Shown one piece after another: positions 4,296-50,784 of a DNA stretch of 50,784 bases. The notes under the pieces were generated by a model, which saw only the letters and a list, made by a program, of their open reading frames with translations, was not told where the DNA came from and ran no database searches. The DNA comes from a virus. Lineage: Duplodnaviria; Caudoviricetes. Both the position numbers and the translations under genes were made by a program. The stretch covers positions 1-50,784 of IMG/VR virus record IMGVR_UViG_3300037424_001831, one strand, 5' to 3'. Numbering within the stretch: the first letter of the stretch is position 1; each line of letters starts with the position of its first letter.

Positions 4296-4826
4296 TTATG
4301 ATGTTCTCGCCACAGGTGTGGTTGTTGCGGAGTTAGAAAAAATAGCTGAAAATCTTGCTTTAAATTGAATAGCTGAGGATACTTGATTTGTGTCCAAACC
4401 ATAAACAGTAAACAATAAATTTTTCTGAAGAGTTACAGTACTTGATATTGGGGTTGAAACGTTATCTTTAATCCATGTTCTAAGTGCGGTTCTAAAGTCA
4501 GCTGGAATACCTGTTTGATAATCGTAGTATCCATCTGCCACACCATTGGTCTTAATAGAGAATGTAATATACATAACACTTGAGCCTGGTTGTGGAAGCC
4601 AGAACTTAAGCCAATAAGAACCAGCTCCAGTAGTTGTCTGAAGGGGTACTACAACTTTACTCCCTGCTAAATTAATACCATTCAAAGGTATATTGAAAGT
4701 TCCAGATGGAATTGGGCCAGCAACGGTATGTGGCTCAACAAAGGTATTTCCATTGCTGAGATTTGTTGTTGTAAAATTAACTGGGTAGTTAATAACGTTT
4801 ATCGGATTTTGATTAGCTATTGCCAT
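4296..4826 (-). CDS. Hypothetical beta-rich protein, probably structural
   Basis: 176-aa ORF co-oriented within the structural operon. Confidence 0.6.
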   Translation of the reverse strand: MAIANQNPINVINYPVNFTTTNLSNGNTFVEPHTVAGPIPSGTFNIPLNGINLAGSKVVVPLQTTTGAGSYWLKFWLPQPGSSVMYITFSIKTNGVADGYYDYQTGIPADFRTALRTWIKDNVSTPISSTVTLQKNLLFTVYGLDTNQVSSAIQFKARFSAIFSNSATTTPVARTS

Positions 4827-4846
4827 TTTTTCTTATTTTATATTGT

Positions 4847-5305
4847 TTAACCTGCAGGAGCAAATTCAGAGAATCCTGTAGAGAAACCAGTTCCAGTAGA
4901 GAATCCTGTATTTGCTGGAGGAGTTTCTCCTGGAGCTATAGCTGGAATACTCGCTTCAGTAATACTCAGTGTAGGAGGTGTTCCATCTGGAAGGTCTGTA
5001 CTATATTCGACATCAGTTGGTGTGTTATCAAACACATAAGCAATAAGGTTTGACTGTACATAATTAGCAGTAGTCTTGAGACACCCTTCACTCTTACCAG
5101 TAACATCTGGAACTTCGCCAGATTCAAGAAGAGGAATTGTTTGGTAATTAGTGTCTATATCAGAAAGTGTAAACTTTGTGATTTCAAACAAGTCGTCACC
5201 AGCAGTATCAAATCTGTTGTTATTTTTGTTAAACAGATAGTTTCTACCTGTCTCCGTTAGGTAGGCTACTGCATAAACTGTTTCCGCTGAAGGTATATAT
5301 CCCAT
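4847..5305 (-). CDS. Structural protein carrying the N-terminal half of a DUF3751-like motif
   Basis: AYLTETGRNYL...ITKFTLSDIDTNY resembles the N-terminus of 5347..7401. Confidence 0.6.
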   Translation of the reverse strand: MGYIPSAETVYAVAYLTETGRNYLFNKNNNRFDTAGDDLFEITKFTLSDIDTNYQTIPLLESGEVPDVTGKSEGCLKTTANYVQSNLIAYVFDNTPTDVEYSTDLPDGTPPTLSITEASIPAIAPGETPPANTGFSTGTGFSTGFSEFAPAG

Positions 5306-5321
5306 TTCTTATTGTTTTTAT

Positions 5322-5329
5322 TATAAATA
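5322..5329 (-). promoter_or_regulatory. TATTTATA putative late-promoter motif
   Basis: Exact octamer on the sense strand, 16 nt before ATG 5305; it recurs before many structural genes. Confidence 0.55.
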
Positions 5330-5346
5330 TCCTTAATTAAAAAAAA

Positions 5347-7401
5347 TTAAAAATCAATTTCTAACTGGAATGCGAGGTATCTTGATTCATTCTTCTTGAT
5401 TGGATAAGTAGGCTTACCTACAGCAACAAGAACGTTGTCATTGTTCAATATTCCGATTTCAGTTATGTATGTGTTTGTATCTAATAGTCCATCAAAACTT
5501 GAGTTCTGAGTGGATGTATTGTAATTTGAGTCTGGAGCTAACACTGTCATAATTGACTTAAATGAAGTTGCCATTATGGCTGTTGTTATATTTCCAAAGA
5601 AGAATGATTCACTACCAAATGTGAGACCTGATAAGTTAATATCATTATTATCATAAAATGTGTTATCAAGAACATAAGTGCTCCCACTGTTCCAGTCTTC
5701 CTGGGAAACTATAAATTGGAAACCTGCAAGATTTGAAGGGTCAATTGTAAGTGAACCAGTAGCTCCTGTATACAATCCGTTTCCTGTTGTTCCAGAAGAA
5801 ATAAGTCTCCACCCATCAGTTGGAATGTTATCAAAATCTGTGTCTGGATAAAGTGTTGTGTTCACCTCATTAACAAGAAGTTGAACTTTATTTGTATTCC
5901 AACCAGTTCCTGAGAAATTATCCATTCCCGCTGAATTTCTAAGATACGGGAAGAAGGATGTGTTAAAAAACGCCCTCAAGTATTGAGGGTTATTAGAAGC
6001 ATCTACAGTTCCATCAATCCTTTGTATGTATTGACAAGGTAATGATTGTGGATAACCGAATGAAGTCCCAGAAGCATAAGTAGGCTCACTCTCTGTAATA
6101 TATGTTACATAATATGTGTAACCGCTCTTCATTAACCCTGTTGTATTAGATGTATCTAAAGTAGTTGTTGAACATGAAGTGTTTGGAACTGCTGAAGAAT
6201 CAAGATTAAGTCGAGGAAGTGTGTAGGACCTATTTGACTTATATGTCAAAGCTGTCAACAACTCTGGGTCCGTTATAACAATCATTTTAAGTTTATGATA
6301 AACCCTACCAACTACATAATCAGAAGTAGTTGAGCCATCTCTAAGCTCCCTGTAAGTTGTTTGTGCGGCATTATCAAATATTGTTGAGCCTGCGTAATCT
6401 TGAAGTTTAATTCCAAAGTTGGTAACTTGACCTGCAGTACCTGGGTATCTATGCCACATTATATTTGGAATGTCTACGACAACGGTTTTTTCAACCAACT
6501 GCTCAGCATAAGTATTACCTGTGTACTCGTTAGTGTAGTGTATGACACCAAATTGCCTTGTCTCGCTACCAAATCCCATATATTGTTTTGTACCATTATA
6601 TTGGATAGAGCCATAAGTTGTATAACCACTTATAGAAGTATTCGTACCTTCAACAGAACTTGTTCTGATGATATTCATATTCCAAACTTTGGTATTAACT
6701 GTTGCAGCAGAGCCATAATAAGTCTCAATTCCATTGAATGGGTAAAAATATGTGTTGATTACTTGAGTTGTAGAAGCTGCTCCAAAATTTGGTACATTTC
6801 TGTCAAGCGTAACTATTGATGTTCCTGTGTCTGCACTTAAAACTCTATACCACAAGCTATTAAAAGGTGTGCCTGAGTTTATGGTTGTAGATGAGTCGTA
6901 TGTCAATCCACTTGCCGAAATTGGCTCCCATGGAATATACATCAATTCTCCAGCAACTGGGAAATGACCAGTACCACCACCAGCAACCGTAACATTATTG
7001 GTTCCATCTGGAACATATGTTGAGTAGTCGATTGTGTTAGAGCCAAGGTATTCATCAAAGTCGATGGCCCAAGTAACTCCTGTGGTTGTTCCCGTGAAGA
7101 AACCCGTAGTCTCAGTCTGTGCTGTAATGATTTGTTTTGCTGAACCAACCGTAATTGGGGTTGCTTCAGAGCCGTCAAAGCTAAGTGGTAGTGCAAATTT
7201 TGGAGCAGCGTCTTTCGGTGCTATAATTCTATTGCAACACCCTATATCATAAGCTCCAGTTCTATCAATTCCGTAGTTTACTTCCCTATCGGATAGAACT
7301 GCCTTGTTAAATGTCAATTGCCCCAAAGATAGGAGTCTTCTCCCGTCATCGGTAAGCTTTATGTTTATAAAAGTTGTTGGCTCGTTTGGTAAGTAACTCA
7401 T
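5347..7401 (-). CDS. Baseplate/tail structural protein with DUF3751-like N- and C-terminal motifs
   Basis: N-terminus IKLTDDGRRLL...VLSDREVNY; C-terminus ITEIGILNNDNVLVAVGKPTYPIKK. Confidence 0.65.
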   Translation of the reverse strand: MSYLPNEPTTFINIKLTDDGRRLLSLGQLTFNKAVLSDREVNYGIDRTGAYDIGCCNRIIAPKDAAPKFALPLSFDGSEATPITVGSAKQIITAQTETTGFFTGTTTGVTWAIDFDEYLGSNTIDYSTYVPDGTNNVTVAGGGTGHFPVAGELMYIPWEPISASGLTYDSSTTINSGTPFNSLWYRVLSADTGTSIVTLDRNVPNFGAASTTQVINTYFYPFNGIETYYGSAATVNTKVWNMNIIRTSSVEGTNTSISGYTTYGSIQYNGTKQYMGFGSETRQFGVIHYTNEYTGNTYAEQLVEKTVVVDIPNIMWHRYPGTAGQVTNFGIKLQDYAGSTIFDNAAQTTYRELRDGSTTSDYVVGRVYHKLKMIVITDPELLTALTYKSNRSYTLPRLNLDSSAVPNTSCSTTTLDTSNTTGLMKSGYTYYVTYITESEPTYASGTSFGYPQSLPCQYIQRIDGTVDASNNPQYLRAFFNTSFFPYLRNSAGMDNFSGTGWNTNKVQLLVNEVNTTLYPDTDFDNIPTDGWRLISSGTTGNGLYTGATGSLTIDPSNLAGFQFIVSQEDWNSGSTYVLDNTFYDNNDINLSGLTFGSESFFFGNITTAIMATSFKSIMTVLAPDSNYNTSTQNSSFDGLLDTNTYITEIGILNNDNVLVAVGKPTYPIKKNESRYLAFQLEIDF

Positions 7402-7415
7402 TTCAGCGTTTTTTC

Positions 7416-7423
7416 TATAAATA
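7416..7423 (-). promoter_or_regulatory. TATTTATA putative late-promoter motif (left arm of a divergent pair)
   Basis: Exact octamer 14 nt before ATG 7401. Confidence 0.55.
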
Positions 7424-7517
7424 GAATGATAAAATTTATTTAATTCTTCTTCGAAAATAAATAGTTAAGGATAAAAAATAATCTTTTATTATTTAGATTC
7501 GAAAACTTTTTCGCTAA

Positions 7518-7525
7518 TATTTATA
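7518..7525 (+). promoter_or_regulatory. TATTTATA putative late-promoter motif (right arm of a divergent pair)
   Basis: Exact octamer 12 nt before ATG 7538. Confidence 0.55.
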
Positions 7526-7537
7526 GAAAAAGATTTA

Positions 7538-9973
7538 ATGGCAACACCAGCAAATACAGCAAACACTTTATCGGTAGCATTCAGCCCTGGAGAGGACCTT
7601 AGGTTCCAAAACGTCTCGTCTGCATCTATATTTACGTTTGGTGATTACAGAATTGAGAGAAACGTTGAGCCTGATTATGTTGGTGACAAACCTGATAACC
7701 TTAGTTTTACACCGTTCTCAACACTTGAGAATATGGGTGTTGATAACTTTAACCCAGTCTTACACACATCAGTTCAAAATAATGAGCTAAGACCAGTAAA
7801 TTCTGACCCCTACAGTTATACATATTTTGGCTCGTTTTATACTGAGGTAGCACGCTCAATTAATAACATAATTGATAATTTTCCGTATGCCGCATTGGCT
7901 TTTGATGAATTCAATGGAGTTACAGTGTATGACTATAGTGAGTCGTTCAACAATACTACTGGACAAAAGACATCTACATTTAAAATACCTGCAAGCGTAA
8001 TAATTAACGAGGGGTATATTTTATTTAGCTCTGGCTCTCCAGTTGGAAATCAAGTTAGCTTGATGACCCAGACAAATCTTTTTGAAATTCAATTAAGTGC
8101 ATCTACAACTGCTCAGACAGAATCTTATGCAATTAACACATATTCATACTTCCCAGGGGTATCTGCTTATCTTCAATTTGAGATAAACGGACACTTATCA
8201 AGTGGAGCTGTTGTTCCGATTACTGGAACCACGAGTGCCCTGCCTGTCTATATCAGACCCTCAAGGAAAAGAGTTACTGAATATAGGATGCAGCAATCAA
8301 GGCTTGAGAGACAACTTCTTAGAGAGGGGGTGTTTGATATTCCTGATGTTGATGATGAGAAAAGGGATTTTACCTACAGAATTCAGTGGCCAAGGACAAT
8401 AGATGGATTTAATCCAGATACAAGGGGAGAGGCTTTTGAGCAATACAAGAGTGCTATGCTCCTTTTGGCTGGGAATACTGATATAGACAAAACTGACATC
8501 ATGATTAAGACCATGATTCCAGACAACTATATTGAATTCGACACAAAGACACAGATATATCAAAAAATTGCAGCATCTTATGCAAAACAGTTTGATGAGA
8601 TTAAGCAGTTTATAGATAACATAGCTTACGCTCACTCCCTTAATTATAACGACCAAGAAAGTGTTCCTGAGAAGTTCTTAGTAAAACTTAGCAACCTGCT
8701 TGGTTGGAAATTGTCAAGTACATTTAGTGAAATAGACCTTTTTGAATATCTTGTTGATGATGAGAATCCTGACCAAAACTCTTTTGCATACTACAATGTA
8801 GAAATGTGGAAGAGGATTTTGATTAATATCAATTGGCTTTACAAGAGAAAGGGGACAAGGGATGCTCTTCAGTTTATTTTTAAATTAATGGGTGCTCCTG
8901 AGTGCCTCGTTGTATTTAACGAGTTTGTCTACGAGATAGAATCTACACTTTCTAACACGGACCAATTAGAAATAACCAACCCAGGAGCTATTAACAAGAC
9001 AAATGCACGGGGTTTTATCGACTATGATGCAAGTCAATTTATTTTTCAAGAAGGGGGCCCAGGAAGAGGAACTGGTCAAAAATACATTAATCAATGGACA
9101 CCAGAGTTTAATCCTCTGAAGAAAATTGATAACATTAAGGTGCAGGTTGGAAATACTGGTTACACTGGGAGCGAAAACATTGTGAACACAAAAGAATTGT
9201 GTGCAACACTTAGTCCTGCCAATGCAATTGAGTGTGACGTATTCCATTGGTATCAAATGAGCGGTACATGTTGGGTTTGGGGAACAAGTGGCTCTCCTTA
9301 TTTTAGCGGGAACACTGTTCCATTTGAATATGCGATTGATAATTGTGATTTTGTTGCTCCAGATATAATTACTGGAATGACATTTCATGAGTACATGCAA
9401 TTTATCTACACATCGAATATAGAGCCAAGAAATAGAAAGACAAACTCTCAAGTTCACACAACCTTTGGATACCCTGAGCTTAAAAAGATATACATGAATT
9501 ACTATCTCATGTCATACCCTCAGTCAAATAGATTGACAATTAAAAAACTTGAAGCTTTTCTTGGGTTGATGGAGGTTAATTTCCAGGATTATTTATTACA
9601 ACTTATTCCAGCAACTACAATTCTTGAGTGCCAAGGAACAACTTATAGAAACACAGTATTCCACAGACAGAGATTCGTCTATAAAGAGGGTATTAATGAT
9701 GGCTCTGAATTTCAGATTCCATTACCACCAGATTTTAGACCAACTCTTAGGCCAGTTCAGATTAGTCCAAAGGTAAATGATTTTTATAGCAGCACAATAA
9801 CCCCTGTTGTAATTAATAGTGGAATTAGCCAAGGTATAACTAAGAGGTTGACAGCTGTCTCCATAAGTGGAACTGTAAACCAAAACCTATTTGTAGCTGG
9901 TGTTGAGGCATTTGAAATTTACGGTGAAATTCAACCAGGAGTATCAAATACAACAATAGTCCCAGGACCATAA
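7538..9973 (+). CDS. Baseplate wedge-like protein with a P2 gpI / T4 gp7-like segment
   Basis: VPEKFLVKLSNLLGWKL...WLYKRKGTRDALQFIFKLMG matches the tail-protein-I pattern; structural context. Confidence 0.6.
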   Translation: MATPANTANTLSVAFSPGEDLRFQNVSSASIFTFGDYRIERNVEPDYVGDKPDNLSFTPFSTLENMGVDNFNPVLHTSVQNNELRPVNSDPYSYTYFGSFYTEVARSINNIIDNFPYAALAFDEFNGVTVYDYSESFNNTTGQKTSTFKIPASVIINEGYILFSSGSPVGNQVSLMTQTNLFEIQLSASTTAQTESYAINTYSYFPGVSAYLQFEINGHLSSGAVVPITGTTSALPVYIRPSRKRVTEYRMQQSRLERQLLREGVFDIPDVDDEKRDFTYRIQWPRTIDGFNPDTRGEAFEQYKSAMLLLAGNTDIDKTDIMIKTMIPDNYIEFDTKTQIYQKIAASYAKQFDEIKQFIDNIAYAHSLNYNDQESVPEKFLVKLSNLLGWKLSSTFSEIDLFEYLVDDENPDQNSFAYYNVEMWKRILININWLYKRKGTRDALQFIFKLMGAPECLVVFNEFVYEIESTLSNTDQLEITNPGAINKTNARGFIDYDASQFIFQEGGPGRGTGQKYINQWTPEFNPLKKIDNIKVQVGNTGYTGSENIVNTKELCATLSPANAIECDVFHWYQMSGTCWVWGTSGSPYFSGNTVPFEYAIDNCDFVAPDIITGMTFHEYMQFIYTSNIEPRNRKTNSQVHTTFGYPELKKIYMNYYLMSYPQSNRLTIKKLEAFLGLMEVNFQDYLLQLIPATTILECQGTTYRNTVFHRQRFVYKEGINDGSEFQIPLPPDFRPTLRPVQISPKVNDFYSSTITPVVINSGISQGITKRLTAVSISGTVNQNLFVAGVEAFEIYGEIQPGVSNTTIVPGP

Positions 9974-26880: not shown

Positions 26881-27111
26881 TTATATGTAACCGTTGTCCC
26901 CTAAATCCTTTTGTGTTGGAAATCCTATGATTTTATCACAAAATTTACACATCTTTCTCAATTTAGAAGCTCCGACTCCAAAGTTAATATCTTTAATTTT
27001 ATAATCCGAATGTTTACAGGTTTTTCTTAATTCTACCAACTCTTCCTCAACCACCTTAATCATATTAATCAATTCCTCTGCCTTTTGTTTGATTTCATCG
27101 TTTTTTTCCAT
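26881..27111 (-). CDS. Small coiled-coil plus putative Zn-binding protein; paralog of 1296..1532
   Basis: TCKHSDY...KMCKFC...GFPT. Confidence 0.7.
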   Translation of the reverse strand: MEKNDEIKQKAEELINMIKVVEEELVELRKTCKHSDYKIKDINFGVGASKLRKMCKFCDKIIGFPTQKDLGDNGYI

Positions 27112-27174
27112 TAAAATCCTTTTGGTTAGACTTTCATTAGAAAATAGAACGCTTTTTTACATTAGGTTTAGGTT

Positions 27175-45319: not shown

Positions 45320-46002
45320 TGTATTTTTAATTTAAGATATTCTCTCTCTTGTTTTTCTTTATTCTTGTCAATCCAGCCACTCACCTGCTCATCATGCATT
45401 CTAATGGTAATATAAACATTTTTTTCATCACCAACAATAATTGGAGAACCATATTTTCTATTAAGTCTCTGGTGCATGTCATGGTCATTGATGATAATAA
45501 GATTTTCATCAAATAATTCTGGATTCTCTTTATCTAACTTAAAAAAGGATACACTTGGGCATCCTATCACTGTTTCCATACTTGGAACAATTATTCTTCT
45601 AACCCCAGGATTTTTACCTGTCTCATAGTTGTGATTAAATACTACAGCTCCCCACTTGGCATTAGGATTTCCTTCCAGACTATTTGCGATATGCTCAAGC
45701 GTTAGTGGATTAGTCATAACATCATCCATGTGCATCACTTTAATTACGTCACCAGTCGCTCTCTTGATTCCTTCATTCATGTTAATGGAACTATTTCCTT
45801 TGCCTCTGTTATTATAAAAATGATTAATGTTTAAGCTATATTTTTTGCACAAATTTTCTACTTCCTTATTTGATGAGTGGTCTGCAACAATAATCTCATA
45901 ATCTTTATGAGTTTGATTGGAGATACTATCAAACAACTCAGTCATAAGAACAACTGCACGACCTTTTGCTTCATAAGCTGGTATAACTATTGAGAATTTC
46001 AT
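45316..46002 (-). CDS. GT2 glycosyltransferase
   Basis: FSIVIPAY, YEIIVAD, NEGIKRATGD, MHMDD. Confidence 0.82.
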   Translation of the reverse strand: MKFSIVIPAYEAKGRAVVLMTELFDSISNQTHKDYEIIVADHSSNKEVENLCKKYSLNINHFYNNRGKGNSSINMNEGIKRATGDVIKVMHMDDVMTNPLTLEHIANSLEGNPNAKWGAVVFNHNYETGKNPGVRRIIVPSMETVIGCPSVSFFKLDKENPELFDENLIIINDHDMHQRLNRKYGSPIIVGDEKNVYITIRMHDEQVSGWIDKNKEKQEREYLKLKIQ

Positions 46003-46796
46003 ATGATTTCTGAAATTTTATTCTTAAGAACAATTGAAATATCAGAAAGCTCAAGGCCTCTCTTATAATTTTCTTCGATATAAGGAAGCATATTCTCGTA
46101 TGTATTCTCACTTAAGTTATTACAAGCATCAATAATTTCATCTACATTATCGACAATTATAAATCCTCTTGTATCAAACCAGTCACCAACATTAGGGCAA
46201 CCACAATAAATCGGAACTGTTTTTGTCACCATGCAATCAACTAACTTCTCTGTAAACCAATTTAATCTCTTAACATTTTCTATACAGATGTGAAATTGAC
46301 TATCAAATAAAGGTTTTTTATCAGCGCCAAGAACTGGATTATTGTTGTAGTTCTCTATTCCACCAAAATTACCACTCAAGAAAAAATTTTTTGGAGCTTT
46401 AATCTTATTTTCTCTAAACCAAAGTTTTTGTCTAAGGTGATGACCTGGGGCCATAAGTTTTCCGCCAACAAGAGTTGATACGGAGAATGATTTCTCAGGA
46501 AACTCATAGTTCTTAATCCAGGTAGATGCAAGTGGCATTACAAATGACTTTCCAGGTATAGCATCAAGTAATTCTTGGTTGTGTGTGAACAAGTAATCAA
46601 ATGTACCAGAATTAAATGCATTCAATGCGTGTTGAGTAAGGTTTAAAATTTCGGGTGGTTCTAACAAATACACAAATCTAATTGTTCCACTTGGAACCTG
46701 GTCTCTTGGAATTTGGTCAACATATAATTCAATCTGCTTATCATGCTCAAGGTCAATTTCCAAATCCCAGCCGCAATATATTTTTATTTTCTTCAT
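45999..46796 (-). CDS. GT10-like (alpha-1,3/4-fucosyltransferase fold) glycosyltransferase
   Basis: FHICIEN...FTEKLVDC...TVPIYCG matches the alpha-1,3-FucT motif. Confidence 0.72.
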   Translation of the reverse strand: MKKIKIYCGWDLEIDLEHDKQIELYVDQIPRDQVPSGTIRFVYLLEPPEILNLTQHALNAFNSGTFDYLFTHNQELLDAIPGKSFVMPLASTWIKNYEFPEKSFSVSTLVGGKLMAPGHHLRQKLWFRENKIKAPKNFFLSGNFGGIENYNNNPVLGADKKPLFDSQFHICIENVKRLNWFTEKLVDCMVTKTVPIYCGCPNVGDWFDTRGFIIVDNVDEIIDACNNLSENTYENMLPYIEENYKRGLELSDISIVLKNKISEII

Positions 46797-46952
46797 TTAG
46801 AAATATTGTTTAATCAGTTCGTAGTCTTCTTGTTCGTACTCAAAATCAAGGTCTTCATCATAAAATACCTTCATATATAGCGAGAATCTTTTTTTTGCCC
46901 ATTCAGTATAAGTCTCAGGGACACTTCCGTTTCCGTTGTAGTAAAAATTCAT
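46797..46952 (-). pseudogene. Orphan glycosyltransferase C-terminus (51-aa ORF), paralogous to the end of 48310..49200
   Basis: MNFYYNGNGSVPETYTEWAKKRFSLYMKVFYDEDLDFEYEQEDYELIKQYF aligns without gaps, 25/51 identical by hand count; ATGA-coupled upstream and abuts the next ATG. Confidence 0.75.
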
Positions 46953-47164
46953 TCTTCATTCAACTTAACTGCAATTCTTGCCTTAGTTCTATTTGCCATC
47001 GTAAGCAACGCTGCTGAATATCCAGCATAAACATCGTTTATCATTTCAGAATCGCTCTTTTCTTTTTTCTTGTCTTCGCCTATTTGTTCCATTTCATTAA
47101 CCAAATTAACTAATAATTCTATCACCTCTTTTTTGCCAAGCGTTTCCAGGTCTTTATAATTCAT
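46949..47164 (-). CDS. 71-aa helical hypothetical protein within the endonuclease cassette
   Basis: ATGA overlaps on both sides. Confidence 0.6.
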   Translation of the reverse strand: MNYKDLETLGKKEVIELLVNLVNEMEQIGEDKKKEKSDSEMINDVYAGYSAALLTMANRTKARIAVKLNEE

Positions 47165-48135
47165 ATCTTTAATTTTTTGATGTATTCATTTTCACTACTC
47201 TGAAATCCGAGTTTTACCGAAGCTTTGACTAATCCTCCATGATGATTTTGGATTCCCCTAAGAAGTGCTCCCATATTATTTTCCTTAAGATACTTGTAAG
47301 TTGGAAATGCGCCCAGACTTTCACAGATAGTAATTAATTCCATCTCCACATTGTTCCAATCTTTCCAATAATTATATGGTTTAACATCTATTTCAAAACC
47401 AAGCTCTTTAGAAATGTCAGACATACTCAATTTATTGTTCCATATAAAAATCACATGTCTTTTAAAGCTATTTTCAATCCACCACCTTTGCGCAGGAAGC
47501 TTATCGAATCCACGATTTATACACTCGTCACGCATTTCTGATAAAATCATATTTTTATCGTAAGAATCGAACTCTAAAAGTTTATTGACATTCGCATCAT
47601 ATGAATTATTAACCATGATACCATGACTTCTAAAAATAGAAACTAACTCATTGTTTATTTCTTGCAAAGACTTTTTGAATAATTTTCTATCTAATCCAAT
47701 AAGACTTAAATTCTCAGATTCATACACAGCTTCCTTAAGTAATTTTGTCTTGTTATATTCTTTGTTTCTCAATCCCCAAATTTCTATATAAAAACCTTCA
47801 ACTTTAAAATCAAATAAGTAATTATAGTTATCTGAAATTTTCCCTTCATACTCATAGTCCAGGTCATTCAAATAAAGGAAGTTATCTAATATAACTTCGT
47901 ATGTTGACTTTACTATATTTCCAGATGGAGTCTTAAGTTGACTTGATGTATTAAATCCAAGTTTTTTAGAAACTTCAACCAAACCTCCATGAAGTTTTAG
48001 AGCGTGATTAAGACCTTTTATCTCTAAAACCTCACGAGTAGTTAACATTCTCCCAAGTTCATTACACTTCGGCAGTAAAAACTCTTTTAAAGTTTCAAAA
48101 TCATTCCAATGTCCATTAGCTCTTTTTTTCATCAT
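47161..48135 (-). CDS. PD-(D/E)XK-type putative homing endonuclease with repeated helical DNA-binding modules
   Basis: STYE..LDNFL...YEYE...LFDFKVEGFYIEIWG nuclease core; repeated units HWNDFETL...HGGLVEVSKKLGF and YWKDWNNV...HGGLVKASVKLGF; start set at ATG 48135. Confidence 0.7.
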   Translation of the reverse strand: MMKKRANGHWNDFETLKEFLLPKCNELGRMLTTREVLEIKGLNHALKLHGGLVEVSKKLGFNTSSQLKTPSGNIVKSTYEVILDNFLYLNDLDYEYEGKISDNYNYLFDFKVEGFYIEIWGLRNKEYNKTKLLKEAVYESENLSLIGLDRKLFKKSLQEINNELVSIFRSHGIMVNNSYDANVNKLLEFDSYDKNMILSEMRDECINRGFDKLPAQRWWIENSFKRHVIFIWNNKLSMSDISKELGFEIDVKPYNYWKDWNNVEMELITICESLGAFPTYKYLKENNMGALLRGIQNHHGGLVKASVKLGFQSSENEYIKKLKI

Positions 48136-48274
48136 TTTTCTTTTGACCTTCAATCCACTTGGAAATGAGCAATTCAACAAGACGAGATTTATTTATTGCA
48201 ACCTTAGATGCAAACTCTTCAAACTCTTCAAGAACAGAGTTAGATATATTATATGTTGCTCTCTTTTTATTCAC
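48116..48274 (-). CDS. Ribbon-helix-helix (CopG/Arc-like) DNA-binding protein, 52 aa (not in the ORF track)
   Basis: GTG start; MNKKRATYNISNSVLEEFEEFASKVAINKSRLVELLISKWIEGQKKNDEKKS shows the beta-strand, helix, NKS-helix RHH pattern; overlaps the endonuclease start. Confidence 0.7.
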   Translation of the reverse strand: MNKKRATYNISNSVLEEFEEFASKVAINKSRLVELLISKWIEGQKKNDEKKS

Positions 48275-48289
48275 TTTTATTCCCTTTTA

Positions 48290-48297
48290 AATAAATA
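48290..48297 (-). promoter_or_regulatory. TATTTATT variant of the late-promoter motif before the RHH-endonuclease pair
   Basis: One mismatch to TATTTATA, 15 nt upstream of the GTG. Confidence 0.4.
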
Positions 48298-48309
48298 GTA
48301 ATTAAAATT

Positions 48310-49200
48310 TTAAATTAAGTCACCTAATGCTTTTTTTGTTGTTTCATAAATTTCTTCGTCAAAACTAACGCCCACATCTTCATTGTAAAACAACTTCATA
48401 TATAAAGCATACCTTTCTTTTGCCCAATCAACGTATGTAGTCGGAACATTACCTGGACCATTATTTACAAAATTTTGGCCCGACCCAATTCCAGCAAAGT
48501 GAATTATCTTATTTCCGAAGTCATAAAGCTCATTCATCTTTGGAAAACCGTTGTCTGAATTTCCTTGTTCATCTGCACACCCATAATCTTTGAAGTTGAG
48601 GTAAAACATTTTTCCTCCATTTTTGATAATGTCAAATGACACTGGGTCAAAAAAATCAATTATAGGGTATCCAAACGGATTGTAATACCCAACTACCATC
48701 CTATGTAGAGTGTTAAATTCATAGTTACTTATTTTCTCCAGATTTATACCAAGAAAATATGTACTCACTGCATCTGGGAGTCCAAGGCCTCTAACATCAT
48801 CTCTCCCACACTTATTGTTCTCATAAGGCCTTCTCGGACCAACAAGGTCATATCCTTCATCAAATTTGTTTAAAATATCAGACAAGCACTCATCCCTAAA
48901 TATTACATCACTGTCAATTTGGATTACTTTCTTATAATTTCCATATTCACCCTTAAGAACTTTTGTCCATATGTATGATGTGCCGAGATGCCCCTGTTTA
49001 AAATACTCTCTTACTTGTTCATCAGTAGATAGTTCGATGTATTCATTATTATTATGCTTCAGCGCTGCTTTAAAATCTTTATGAGTTCCAAAGATATGAA
49101 TCTTGGCATCATGATGCTCGTGGAATGATTCCAGCATTTTATTTAGAACCTTTCCACAATTATAAGCAATGGTAAATATGAAAACATCTTTATTCTTCAT
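48310..49200 (-). CDS. GT-A fold glycosyltransferase
   Basis: FTIAYNCG, QIDSDVIF (DxD) and IIHFAG; start set at ATG 49200. Confidence 0.72.
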   Translation of the reverse strand: MKNKDVFIFTIAYNCGKVLNKMLESFHEHHDAKIHIFGTHKDFKAALKHNNNEYIELSTDEQVREYFKQGHLGTSYIWTKVLKGEYGNYKKVIQIDSDVIFRDECLSDILNKFDEGYDLVGPRRPYENNKCGRDDVRGLGLPDAVSTYFLGINLEKISNYEFNTLHRMVVGYYNPFGYPIIDFFDPVSFDIIKNGGKMFYLNFKDYGCADEQGNSDNGFPKMNELYDFGNKIIHFAGIGSGQNFVNNGPGNVPTTYVDWAKERYALYMKLFYNEDVGVSFDEEIYETTKKALGDLI

Positions 49201-49954
49201 CGTATAATTTATCAAGTGTGCTATAAGTCGGCCTCCCCCTGAGAATACCTTCAATTCTATTAATTTCCGACTGACTAATTTTAGATTCATTCATTGGATT
49301 CTCTCTATTGTAAACATAAAGAATATCTGGAATATATCTGCTCTTATCAACCCCGCACATCTCAAGCATTGGGAATTGAAATGATAAATCTGGAGCCATA
49401 GAAACATAGTCCCCAGTAGATGGGTCCTTCATGTCATCTGGATTTATCTTCAAGAAAAGCTCTCTCCTAAACGTTCTTAGGTGACTCGCAAGCCATCTAT
49501 GCTGTCTGAATGTTTTGTTCTGACGAACCTCAAGCGGGTATTCATGATAATGTTGTGATACATCTCGATAAGGAAATTCTTCATAAGTTCCATAGGTCAT
49601 CCAACAATCGTACTTATTGTATTCTTGGTTTATTCTCGACAACACATCTCCATGAGGAAACCAATCATCTCCATCAAGTGTAATCACAATAGATTTTGGT
49701 TTTGACATCTCTGTCCCAATTCTAATATTTTCACCCTGATACTTTCTTTGCTCATTCTGAAGTACCCGAATATTATCGAACTTATCGACATATTCAAGAG
49801 CTTTCTCATAGGTTCCGTCATTTGATTGTGCATCCAGGAATACAATTTCGTAATCAGGGTAGTTCTGGCTAATAGCGCTATCAAGACATCGTTCTACATA
49901 TTGAGCTGCATTTCTTGTGCTGATTACAATTGATATGTGGTTAATATTTGCCAT
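49190..49954 (-). CDS. GT2 glycosyltransferase
   Basis: SIVISTRN..YVERCLDS, DAQSNDGT, LDGDDW, SHLRTF. Confidence 0.85.
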   Translation of the reverse strand: MANINHISIVISTRNAAQYVERCLDSAISQNYPDYEIVFLDAQSNDGTYEKALEYVDKFDNIRVLQNEQRKYQGENIRIGTEMSKPKSIVITLDGDDWFPHGDVLSRINQEYNKYDCWMTYGTYEEFPYRDVSQHYHEYPLEVRQNKTFRQHRWLASHLRTFRRELFLKINPDDMKDPSTGDYVSMAPDLSFQFPMLEMCGVDKSRYIPDILYVYNRENPMNESKISQSEINRIEGILRGRPTYSTLDKLYDEE

Positions 49955-50772
49955 TACTTAAATTTTTTGATAGCCTCAGCCTTTAACATAATCATTTCCT
50001 TTTTTTGCTCAAGATTCATTGACTTAAATTCGTTTTGAATTTTTAACATTCCTGAAATGTATGGATTATCGTTCCATGTTGGCGGGTGGAACATGTGGTA
50101 AAGCTCAATGTCAGGAGCATCTGAAGTATACATCTTGTCAATAGCATTCACTTTCTCCCAAAAGAAAGCATCCTCTGGGGAGTTGGCCAAGAAAAACTCT
50201 GGGTCATAACCGCCAATCTCAAAAAACAAATCTCTCTCAATTGTTATGGAACCACCTGGGGCTCCAATTATATGTGGAGGATTTACTTCATTAAGTTCAA
50301 CACTCAAGTCATCAACTTCAAATTCTCCAGCTATGACTTTTTGGGTCAACTCTGGATTAATATACAAAACTCGCCTTCCTGTAAAATTTTGAATTGCTCT
50401 TGCCTTTTTGTCTCTTATATTTTTAAATAATCTCACGAAAAAATCTGATTGCATTAAACAGTCAATGTCATGGAATAAGATGTATTTTGACTTAGATGAG
50501 AATAAGGCTCCCATATTTTGAGCCAAGCACTTATTAAAGAGCTCGCCTGGCTCGGATTTAATCCAGATATAGTTTAGCCTATTCTTCTTGCAAAATTTTG
50601 AGTGTTCTGGATTTTCGCTATGCTCAACCATTGTATAAGAAATCTTTAATCCAGATTTTGCGGCAGCCACAGAAAAACTCTTATACATAGGTTCTGCAAA
50701 ATCATTTCTACCCCTTACAGGAATTATCGCACTAACGTCAAATAAATCCATAGTATCATGTACTACAGACAC
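49954..50772 (-). CDS. GT2/GT7-like (galactosyltransferase C-terminal domain) glycosyltransferase
   Basis: IIPVRGR, FNKCLAQNMG, FHDID, GGYDPEF...PED, HMFH. Confidence 0.78.
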   Translation of the reverse strand: MSVVHDTMDLFDVSAIIPVRGRNDFAEPMYKSFSVAAAKSGLKISYTMVEHSENPEHSKFCKKNRLNYIWIKSEPGELFNKCLAQNMGALFSSKSKYILFHDIDCLMQSDFFVRLFKNIRDKKARAIQNFTGRRVLYINPELTQKVIAGEFEVDDLSVELNEVNPPHIIGAPGGSITIERDLFFEIGGYDPEFFLANSPEDAFFWEKVNAIDKMYTSDAPDIELYHMFHPPTWNDNPYISGMLKIQNEFKSMNLEQKKEMIMLKAEAIKKFK

Positions 50773-50784
50773 ATTATTCTCAAG

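Follow-up and report, generated by a model that had tools for sequence, protein, structure and literature searches.

A predicted endonuclease cassette in a phage glycosyltransferase gene: a likely case of splicing-free homing by 3'-end replacement

Organization of the locus

The DNA analysed here, referred to below as the window, is a 50,784-bp contig (IMG/VR record IMGVR_UViG_3300037424_001831; Duplodnaviria, Caudoviricetes) of a large phage, in which genes for a baseplate wedge, a primase and a resolvase are present. Its minus strand carries a long glycan cluster (GT2, GT10, GT11, methyltransferase, sulfotransferase, GDP-mannose dehydratase, epimerases and DegT), and within this cluster lies a glycosyltransferase (GT) gene whose 3' end is present twice. 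Between the two copies are a ribbon-helix-helix (RHH) gene, a gene for a predicted endonuclease and an open reading frame (ORF) of 71 amino acids (aa). Comparison with related genes supports a foreign origin of the copy that completes the GT, and points to the copy stranded downstream as a mini-ORF (the stub) as the native end. The features of the locus are listed below.

49200-48310, minus strand: GT gene, whole (296 aa; tail from Q242, codon at 48477)
48478..49200, minus strand: GT body, residues 1-241, from the recipient lineage; GT-A fold, with the conserved HFAGIGSG block at its end
48310..48477, minus strand: replacement 3' end, foreign by comparison with its relatives, with a QNFVNN start (55 codons and stop); completes the GT
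48275..48309, minus strand: spacer of 35 nt with TATTTAT at 48297-48291; candidate RHH operator region
48116..48274, minus strand: RHH gene (52 aa), Arc/CopG-like; 20-nt overlap with the nuclease gene
47161..48135, minus strand: predicted endonuclease (324 aa) with a Vsr-like PD-(D/E)XK-fold domain; ATGA overlap with the 71-aa ORF
46949..47164, minus strand: 71-aa ORF, helical, likely a passenger; ATGA overlap with the mini-ORF
46797..46952, minus strand: mini-ORF, the displaced original GT 3' end by the same comparison; 51 codons from the native Met242, frame intact
45999..46796, minus strand: GT10-family (fucosyltransferase-like) gene, Pfam Glyco_transf_10 E 2.7e-4; ATG directly after the mini-ORF TAA

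The insert comprises 1,525 bp (48477-46953) and sits at the codon boundary GSG/M directly after HFAGIGSG, its insertion codon lying eight codons past the invariant H234 of the most conserved block of the GT gene. The element had been described in an earlier note as intron-less, and neither a self-splicing intron nor another structured RNA was matched in Rfam up to E 1 between 45500 and 50784. Splicing would be unnecessary, as nearly all of the insert is coding sequence and the gene end occurs in it a second time. No convincing terminal or target-site repeats were found, the main repeats being the nuclease's own coding repeats, and by codon-usage indices the insert is not distinguishable from the neighbouring genes. 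The sequence ATGAATT opens both the 71-aa ORF (47164) and the mini-ORF (46952), forming a 7-nt direct repeat that brackets the 71-aa ORF and may reflect a microhomology join or chance.

Origin of the two 3' ends

The GT body matches Pfam GT2 (E 7.8e-5), and the AlphaFold model of the whole protein (pLDDT 94.5) has GT-A enzymes as its top structural matches (Z 12.5, root-mean-square deviation (rmsd) 4.3, 229 residues). The tail is modelled with confidence as three helices that belong to the GT-A-fold enzyme, and its loss would probably matter. The ungapped alignment of the mini-ORF with this tail, reported in the earlier note, was reproduced: 25/51 aa and 90/156 nt are identical, and the local alignment score is 151, as against 65 for the best of 5,000 shuffles. 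The similarity begins exactly at the mini-ORF ATG, with none upstream, and the two copies agree at only 15/34 third codon positions.

The origin of each end was assessed among GT homologues (the best 120 of 231 listed, from which two fragments without the HFAG block were dropped); eight loci were added, four of them duplicates or near-duplicates of proteins already included, so that 125 rows were compared with the query. The nine homologues with the highest scores (among the best 120 of 231) all read HFAG(I/V)GSG-MNFYYNG, with 38-43/51 identities to the mini-ORF and 26-29 to the working tail. When the rows were ranked by body identity, the 25 nearest (24 distinct proteins) were without exception closer to the mini-ORF (mean 39.7/51 versus 27.6/51 for the working tail). 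Relative to the nearest homologue, P0015, the differences amount to 40/239 in the body and 8/51 in the mini-ORF, a rate like that of the body, and to 23/51 in the working tail (Fisher p 3e-5). The body falls in a clade of 24 rows, all other members of which have tails of the mini-ORF type. The best matches of the working tail sit on distant GT bodies (P0044, 38/51; P0098, 35/51), and it has diagnostic residues and extra length in common with the tails of such distant GTs; the best right-hand match of P0098 is, in turn, the window GT (switch point 233-237, gain 14). As the tails of the nearest bodies match the mini-ORF and the working tail matches distant bodies, these comparisons support the view that the stub is the native 3' end of the lineage and that the working end is foreign, as the earlier note had suggested. 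The breakpoints coincide: codon 242 is precisely where the mini-ORF starts, and a switch within the GT is best placed at 232-256.

One claim about the mini-ORF, that it was kept in order to couple downstream translation, found no support. In 78/125 rows the tail begins with MNF, and the start codon of the mini-ORF is thus the family's native Met; the stop codon of the 71-aa ORF is the TGA within the ATGA at this start, and an upstream stop on ATGA has a 1-in-3 chance in an any-frame junction. With the ATG native and the stop so placed, coupling is not needed to explain the arrangement.

The empty allele and related GT loci

Forty-five GT loci were fetched (some of them duplicates), and none contains the RHH gene, the nuclease gene or the 71-aa ORF. 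The GT10 gene is the usual downstream neighbour of the GT, being the next gene in 18/45 loci and fused to it in one more. The empty allele that had been predicted, with the GT reading directly into the GT10 gene, was found, most clearly at locus L037, which has a GT2 gene (86% identical), a GT with GSG-MNFFYNG and a GT10 gene whose start likewise abuts the GT stop. At the DNA level, L037 and the window share two colinear blocks (74% identity) on either side of the insert, the first running from the GT body on into the foreign tail and the second from 2 nt before the stub ATG through the GT10 gene. From these two blocks, the window corresponds to an L037-like allele with 1,525 bp added at GSG/M.

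The stub differs from its L037 counterpart by 18 synonymous and 11 non-synonymous changes over 51 codons, the last 60 body codons showing 17 and 17. No decay of the stub is seen, which fits recent displacement as well as selection. A degenerate pattern of the stub start matched four viral contigs, all with intact GT genes already in the GT set. A second stand-alone 51-aa ORF beginning at the same Met, P0282 (69% identical), was found in another lineage; its contig is 1,009 bp long, and the ORF may represent a further stub or a gene call at a contig edge.

Two further observations concern these loci. At L040:4989-6659 (+) the GT and a GT10-like gene are fused into one reading frame. At L036:5877-6059 (the same contig as L001) the GT stop abuts a GC-rich non-coding stretch at the contig end, without an Rfam match; judged by eye, we take it to resemble the end of an insertion sequence.

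Tail patches and mosaicism across the GT family

When the GT bodies are arranged in a tree (91 rows), a Q at the start of the tail occurs ten times on ten separate branches, a scatter like that of shuffled labels (mean 9.7), and six of the ten begin with the identical QNFVNN. Two proteins carry an excess of differences at the start of the tail. The L036 protein differs from its sister P0032 at 18/242 body positions and at 7/18 of the first tail residues (p 5e-4), and a similar excess is seen between P0045 and P0067 (p 1.5e-4). In the L036 DNA, the first 18 tail codons are of the working-tail type and the remainder is of the stub type, a pattern expected from cassette loss by recombination between the two ends, or from short-tract conversion. 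A position-blind mosaic scan of 122 GT rows placed 10 above the 99th percentile of a column-shuffle null, and 4 of these 10, including the two strongest (P0071 and P0041), switch within residues 225-260.

The predicted nuclease

The nuclease of the window has no significant Pfam or PHROG family and no LAGLIDADG Pfam match; its similarity to the Pfam I-HmuI NUMOD-like family is weak (E 0.13). The structural model (pLDDT 83.7) consists of a central domain (approximately residues 64-172) and three flanking helical repeats. The best nuclease matches of the central domain are the catalytic domain of I-Bth0305I (3r3p_B; Z 9.5, rmsd 2.8, 94 residues) and Vsr (1cw0; Z 8.7), while a Toxoplasma mitoribosomal chain scores 10.2, tied with I-Bth0305I. 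For the Vsr-like fold, Foldseek gives a probability of 1.00 at E 0.09, with no PDB match at E <=0.001.

Among 160 homologues examined, S76, E79, D108, E117 and G120 are present in 69/69 in which the domain is aligned, and K133 in 68/69; no histidine occurs in the invariant or near-invariant columns of the domain. Assignment to the PD-(D/E)XK endonucleases, proposed from the sequence, agrees with the predicted PD-(D/E)XK/Vsr-like fold, although the canonical E-x-K is missing (E117-I-W-G, with W119 in place of the usual lysine). With the conserved acidic residues present, the protein looks, in the model, like an intact homing-type enzyme, and its activity is predicted. A single-sequence search recovered no relative in viral contigs, phages or plasmids. 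An alignment search recovered 6 distant viral loci and, over 32/64 parts of the metagenome data, at least 28 metagenome loci. The family numbers 376 representatives at E 1e-30 or better, many of which apparently match via the repeats; the closest homologue, P0002, is 79% identical, and relatives carry the homing-endonuclease-associated repeats of Pfam PF18780.

The RHH gene, the promoter-like motif and the 71-aa ORF

The RHH protein has a weak Arc-like match in PHROG (E 0.005) and is 53-60% identical to the products of RHH genes located directly upstream of related nucleases (L008 and, twice, L011), and two such relatives match Pfam RHH_3 (E 2e-4 and 7e-4). Prediction of an RHH-nuclease complex gave a score of 0.07 (mark 0.32). 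The RHH protein is predicted to be an autorepressor of the cassette's own promoter; as far as the accessible part of the source goes, a direct precedent for RHH repression of a mobile nuclease promoter is found in IS605 elements (preprint 10.64898/2026.09.24.754181).

The word TATTTAT is found 18-30 nt upstream of 8 gene starts in the window, as compared with at most 3 for 20 other permutations of the word. The sites, each 20-29 nt before a gene start, are as follows.

TATTTAT sites, plus strand: 7518, 11694, 24954
TATTTAT sites, minus strand: 5329, 7423, 13607, 24902, 30538, 48297

TATTTAT precedes the RHH or the nuclease gene in 4/4 related cassettes examined, and four RHH genes each lie 22-25 nt past it and directly before the nuclease. 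Enriched at gene starts and present before the related cassettes, it is likely the promoter motif of this phage group, judging from the sequences. Apart from TATTTAT, inspection by eye of the four upstream regions brought no common operator to light. The 71-aa ORF has no tblastn match in 84 loci, no relative in viral contigs and no Atlas match at >=0.9, and is likely a passenger.

Related cassettes in other glycan clusters

The pair of RHH and nuclease genes occurs three further times in or near glycan genes (once at L008 and twice at L011), and the four closest nuclease loci with context all adjoin glycan genes. At L008 the pair precedes a GDP-fucose-synthase-like gene. L011:1413-3576 and 5485-7640 (+) hold two separate RHH and nuclease cassettes (about 667 aa each); both are within 4 kb of a single glycan cluster, the one preceding a GT11 gene and the other a DegT gene. 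At L009 the nuclease precedes a GDP-mannose dehydratase gene, the 5' side being beyond the contig. Locus L010:223-354 (+) contains a stranded 21-codon start of an NDP-sugar epimerase gene, followed by TATTTAT and a nuclease gene (351-1541) without RHH; this is possibly a mirror case, with a 5' end displaced, the contig ending before any replacement would show.

Several other ORFs were observed near these cassettes and elsewhere. L008:6350-7240 and L011:4337-4585, 4588-5199 and 5199-5405 encode proteins with an R-x-V-L-(F/V)-E-K motif, which is present twice in the L008 protein. At L002:4818-6692 (+) a distant relative of the nuclease is free-standing in an unrelated large phage, and the next ORF (228 aa, without a Pfam match) is absent at the matching place of L005. 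In the window itself, two small paralogous ORFs (about 26884-27156 and 1299-1535, both on the minus strand; 29% identity over 69 residues, E 3e-8) contain C/H pairs resembling metal ligands.

Proposed mechanism and alternative explanations

We consider it probable that the insert is a splicing-free homing element whose nuclease cuts at or near the junction and which homes by replacing the host gene at its 3' end. When donor and recipient phages infect together, the uninterrupted allele would be cut at or near the codons of GSG/MNF(Y/F)YNG. Repair would then copy the donor, the GT body providing homology on the left and either the stub or the GT10 gene on the right. The recipient would gain a full-length hybrid GT in which the junction CAA AAT TTT GTA AAT replaces ATG AAT TTT TAC TAC and would resist cutting, while the stub would lack the left half of the cut site and its translation would not be required. 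The RHH protein would repress the promoter of the cassette. Short conversion tracts, or loss of the cassette via recombination between the two ends, would leave QNFVNN patches on native tails. This reading is favoured by the recurrence of the RHH-nuclease pair near glycan genes, the coinciding breakpoints, the nuclease fold and the empty allele taken together. The homologue comparison of the two ends, the mosaics that switch near the junction, the Q-type tails on separate branches, the two-part tail of L036 and the stranded epimerase start of L010 point the same way.

Several observations weigh against it. The filled allele has been seen once, with no second among the 45 GT loci, so that mobility at this site is presumed, and in 0/34 nuclease loci (many short or distant) were both copies of a duplicated host-gene end present. 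Where GT10 follows the GT, which is the case at 18 loci, two (L042 and L076) show an end of the QNF type that leads into GT10 without a cassette; such ends in cassette-free relatives had been named as a sign against the replacement, and they are seen here in a minority. We infer that L042 and L076 are scars or donors. No close donor of the working tail was found among the GT homologues (best 38/51), and a sister relationship of the two tails withstands an approximately unbiased (AU) test (p 0.30), for which 53 tail columns, a small number, were available; this limits the support that trees can lend. The excess of tail-start differences is significant in 2/4 QNFVNN proteins compared with their sisters (it is not in P0024 and P0025), and the sister pairs were picked after inspection of the tree. 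Of the significant mosaics, 6/10 switch elsewhere in the GT, and the mosaic gain of the window GT (10) just equals the 99th-percentile threshold.

The best surviving alternative, to which we assign a minor share of the probability, is a one-off capture, in which a free-standing RHH-nuclease cassette downstream of a donor GT was acquired by a homologous crossover in HFAGIGSG at its left end and, at its right end, by an illegitimate join that microhomology guided. The tail of foreign origin would then be a hitch-hiking flank and the stub a by-product, and the target of the nuclease may be another gene of the cluster. The cassettes of L008, L009 and L011, which stand between intact glycan genes with no visible duplication, are in keeping with such a capture, as are the possible microhomology of ATGAATT at the starts of the 71-aa ORF and the stub, and the single filled allele. 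Moreover, HFAGIGSG is the best spot for a chance crossover between diverged GTs and could alone cluster the breakpoints. A capture of this kind, however, requires the right-hand join to hit by chance the same codon as the left-hand switch, and it leaves unexplained the short QNFVNN patches that begin at this codon on unrelated branches; P0282, the second stand-alone 51-aa ORF from the same Met, in another lineage, also speaks against it. A one-off capture could also be how such an element is born.

It is improbable, in our estimate, that the cassette is a domesticated module, its nuclease retained for the benefit of the phage (cutting rival phage or host DNA, with the RHH or the 71-aa protein as a restraint) and its mini-ORF selected because it couples translation to GT10 or because it supplies the GT with a C-terminal peptide that can be exchanged. 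The mini-ORF is indeed intact, with no excess divergence from L037 in the codon comparison given above, overlaps the upstream stop and abuts GT10 like the native junction, and host genes split by endonucleases can work, as the accessible part of the literature describes for Aeh1 nrdA (PMC2988022). The frame would nevertheless be just as intact if the displacement were recent or if every recipient supplied a fresh stub; the mini-ORF begins at the native Met, the GT upstream of it has its full length without it, and the 71-aa ORF is absent from all related cassettes.

Still less credit is given to a local duplication, whereby insertion of the cassette doubled the GT end on the spot and rapid divergence of the upstream copy followed, with no foreign end involved. 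It can draw on the AU test, which keeps the two tails as possible sisters, and on the missing near-identical donor tail. Against this, the working tail resembles the tails of the distant GTs P0044 and P0098 and the untranslated-looking stub stays at clade-level identity, while the copies agree at fewer than half of the third codon positions compared. Finally, an assembly chimera of two related phages, conceivable for a metagenome contig of approximately 9-fold depth, is hardly credible, as a single Logan contig (from a run that is possibly the source of the window, and so not independent) covers 46361-50784 with even depth and one difference, passing through the cassette without a joint, which disfavours a mis-join, and the reading frames overlap in register across the cassette junctions. 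The sole listed run that holds the region is a DNA metagenome of sediment, no RNA run being listed for it, and the empty allele was not seen in the contigs of this metagenome.

Comparison with known systems

The comparisons in this section extend as far as the accessible portions of the cited sources. The closest parallel to the proposed homing by end replacement is provided by the WHO elements at FBA1 of Torulaspora and Lachancea yeasts, for which the end-replacing mechanism was shown experimentally (PMC7282813). In the model of these elements, the mobile unit consists of a resistant 3' end and a nuclease gene, while the fragment left downstream provides homology and can do without translation (PMC7282813; preprint 10.64898/2026.08.13.744650). 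As in WHO (PMC7282813), the window has a predicted endonuclease gene flanked by a host gene of full length, its 3' end replaced, and by the stranded old end; splicing appears not to be involved, and the 5' and 3' parts of the host gene appear to differ in history. The window element differs in residing in a phage and not in a yeast nucleus, in the Vsr-like PD-(D/E)XK fold of its nuclease (LAGLIDADG with a zinc finger in WHO) and in its host gene, a non-core GT instead of FBA1. It also has its own promoter-like motif, an RHH gene and a passenger ORF, forms a single unit without a tandem cluster, and retains the stub as an intact coupled ORF.

Gene hybrids generated by mORFs of fungal mitochondria are known for atp6 of Allomyces macrogynus and for atp6, atp9, cox2 and nad3 of Glomus (PMC3630166). 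They share with the window a foreign in-frame C-terminus followed by an endonuclease ORF and then by the native C-terminus, which matches close relatives. Their endonucleases are of the LAGLIDADG or GIY-YIG type, they are mitochondrial, and no RHH regulator is described for them in that source (PMC3630166).

With the EDxHD endonucleases (prototype I-Bth0305I; PMC3239194) the window nuclease has in common the Vsr-like fold, repeated putative DNA-binding units and a phage origin. Unlike them, it lacks the conserved histidine, its invariant residues being E79, D108 and E117, with a near-invariant K133; its domain is central, with repeats on both sides, and it appears to lie outside any intron or intein. 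Membership of the EDxHD group is ruled out by the lack of this histidine.

The free-standing endonucleases of phages (seg and mob of T4, mobE of Aeh1; PMC2988022) are likewise intron-less, lie in phage operons, often have their own promoter and move with flanking DNA. These genes, however, either occupy sites between genes and have their cut sites at a distance, or divide the host gene into two halves that both work (PMC2988022), whereas the GT of the window stays whole and its end is present twice; the string 'duplicat' does not occur in the accessible text of PMC2988022. A small RHH gene beside a mobile nuclease is also seen with the Arc repressors of IS605-family transposons, and Arc genes adjoin homing endonuclease genes as well (preprint 10.64898/2026.09.24.754181); unlike in the IS605 systems, no TnpA, TnpB or RNA guide was seen at the window cassette. 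No phage example of 3'-end replacement was found in the published literature, most subscription papers being beyond the search, and none in the accessible part of Barth et al. 2023 (PMC10448857).

Significance

In addition to introns and inteins, homing elements that replace gene ends have been described as a third class, with examples from yeast and from the mitochondria of fungi. The mechanism is therefore already known, and what would be new here is the phage GT setting, the Vsr-like fold and the RHH gene. If the proposed homing is true, a phage case with another nuclease fold and its own repressor would mean that the strategy arose independently in phages. The proposal makes a precise prediction, a cut close to a single codon, for which alleles expected to be sensitive or resistant occur naturally, and it offers a candidate operator of 35 nt. 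End replacement would also constitute one route to the mosaic glycosyltransferases of phages. A broader generalization, which we hold to be doubtful, is that RHH-regulated, Vsr-fold homing cassettes repeatedly replace the ends of glycan genes in large phages, with the HFAGIGSG site as the scene of a WHO-like arms race; the swapped helices would then alter the enzyme, and a selfish nuclease would diversify the phage glycan.

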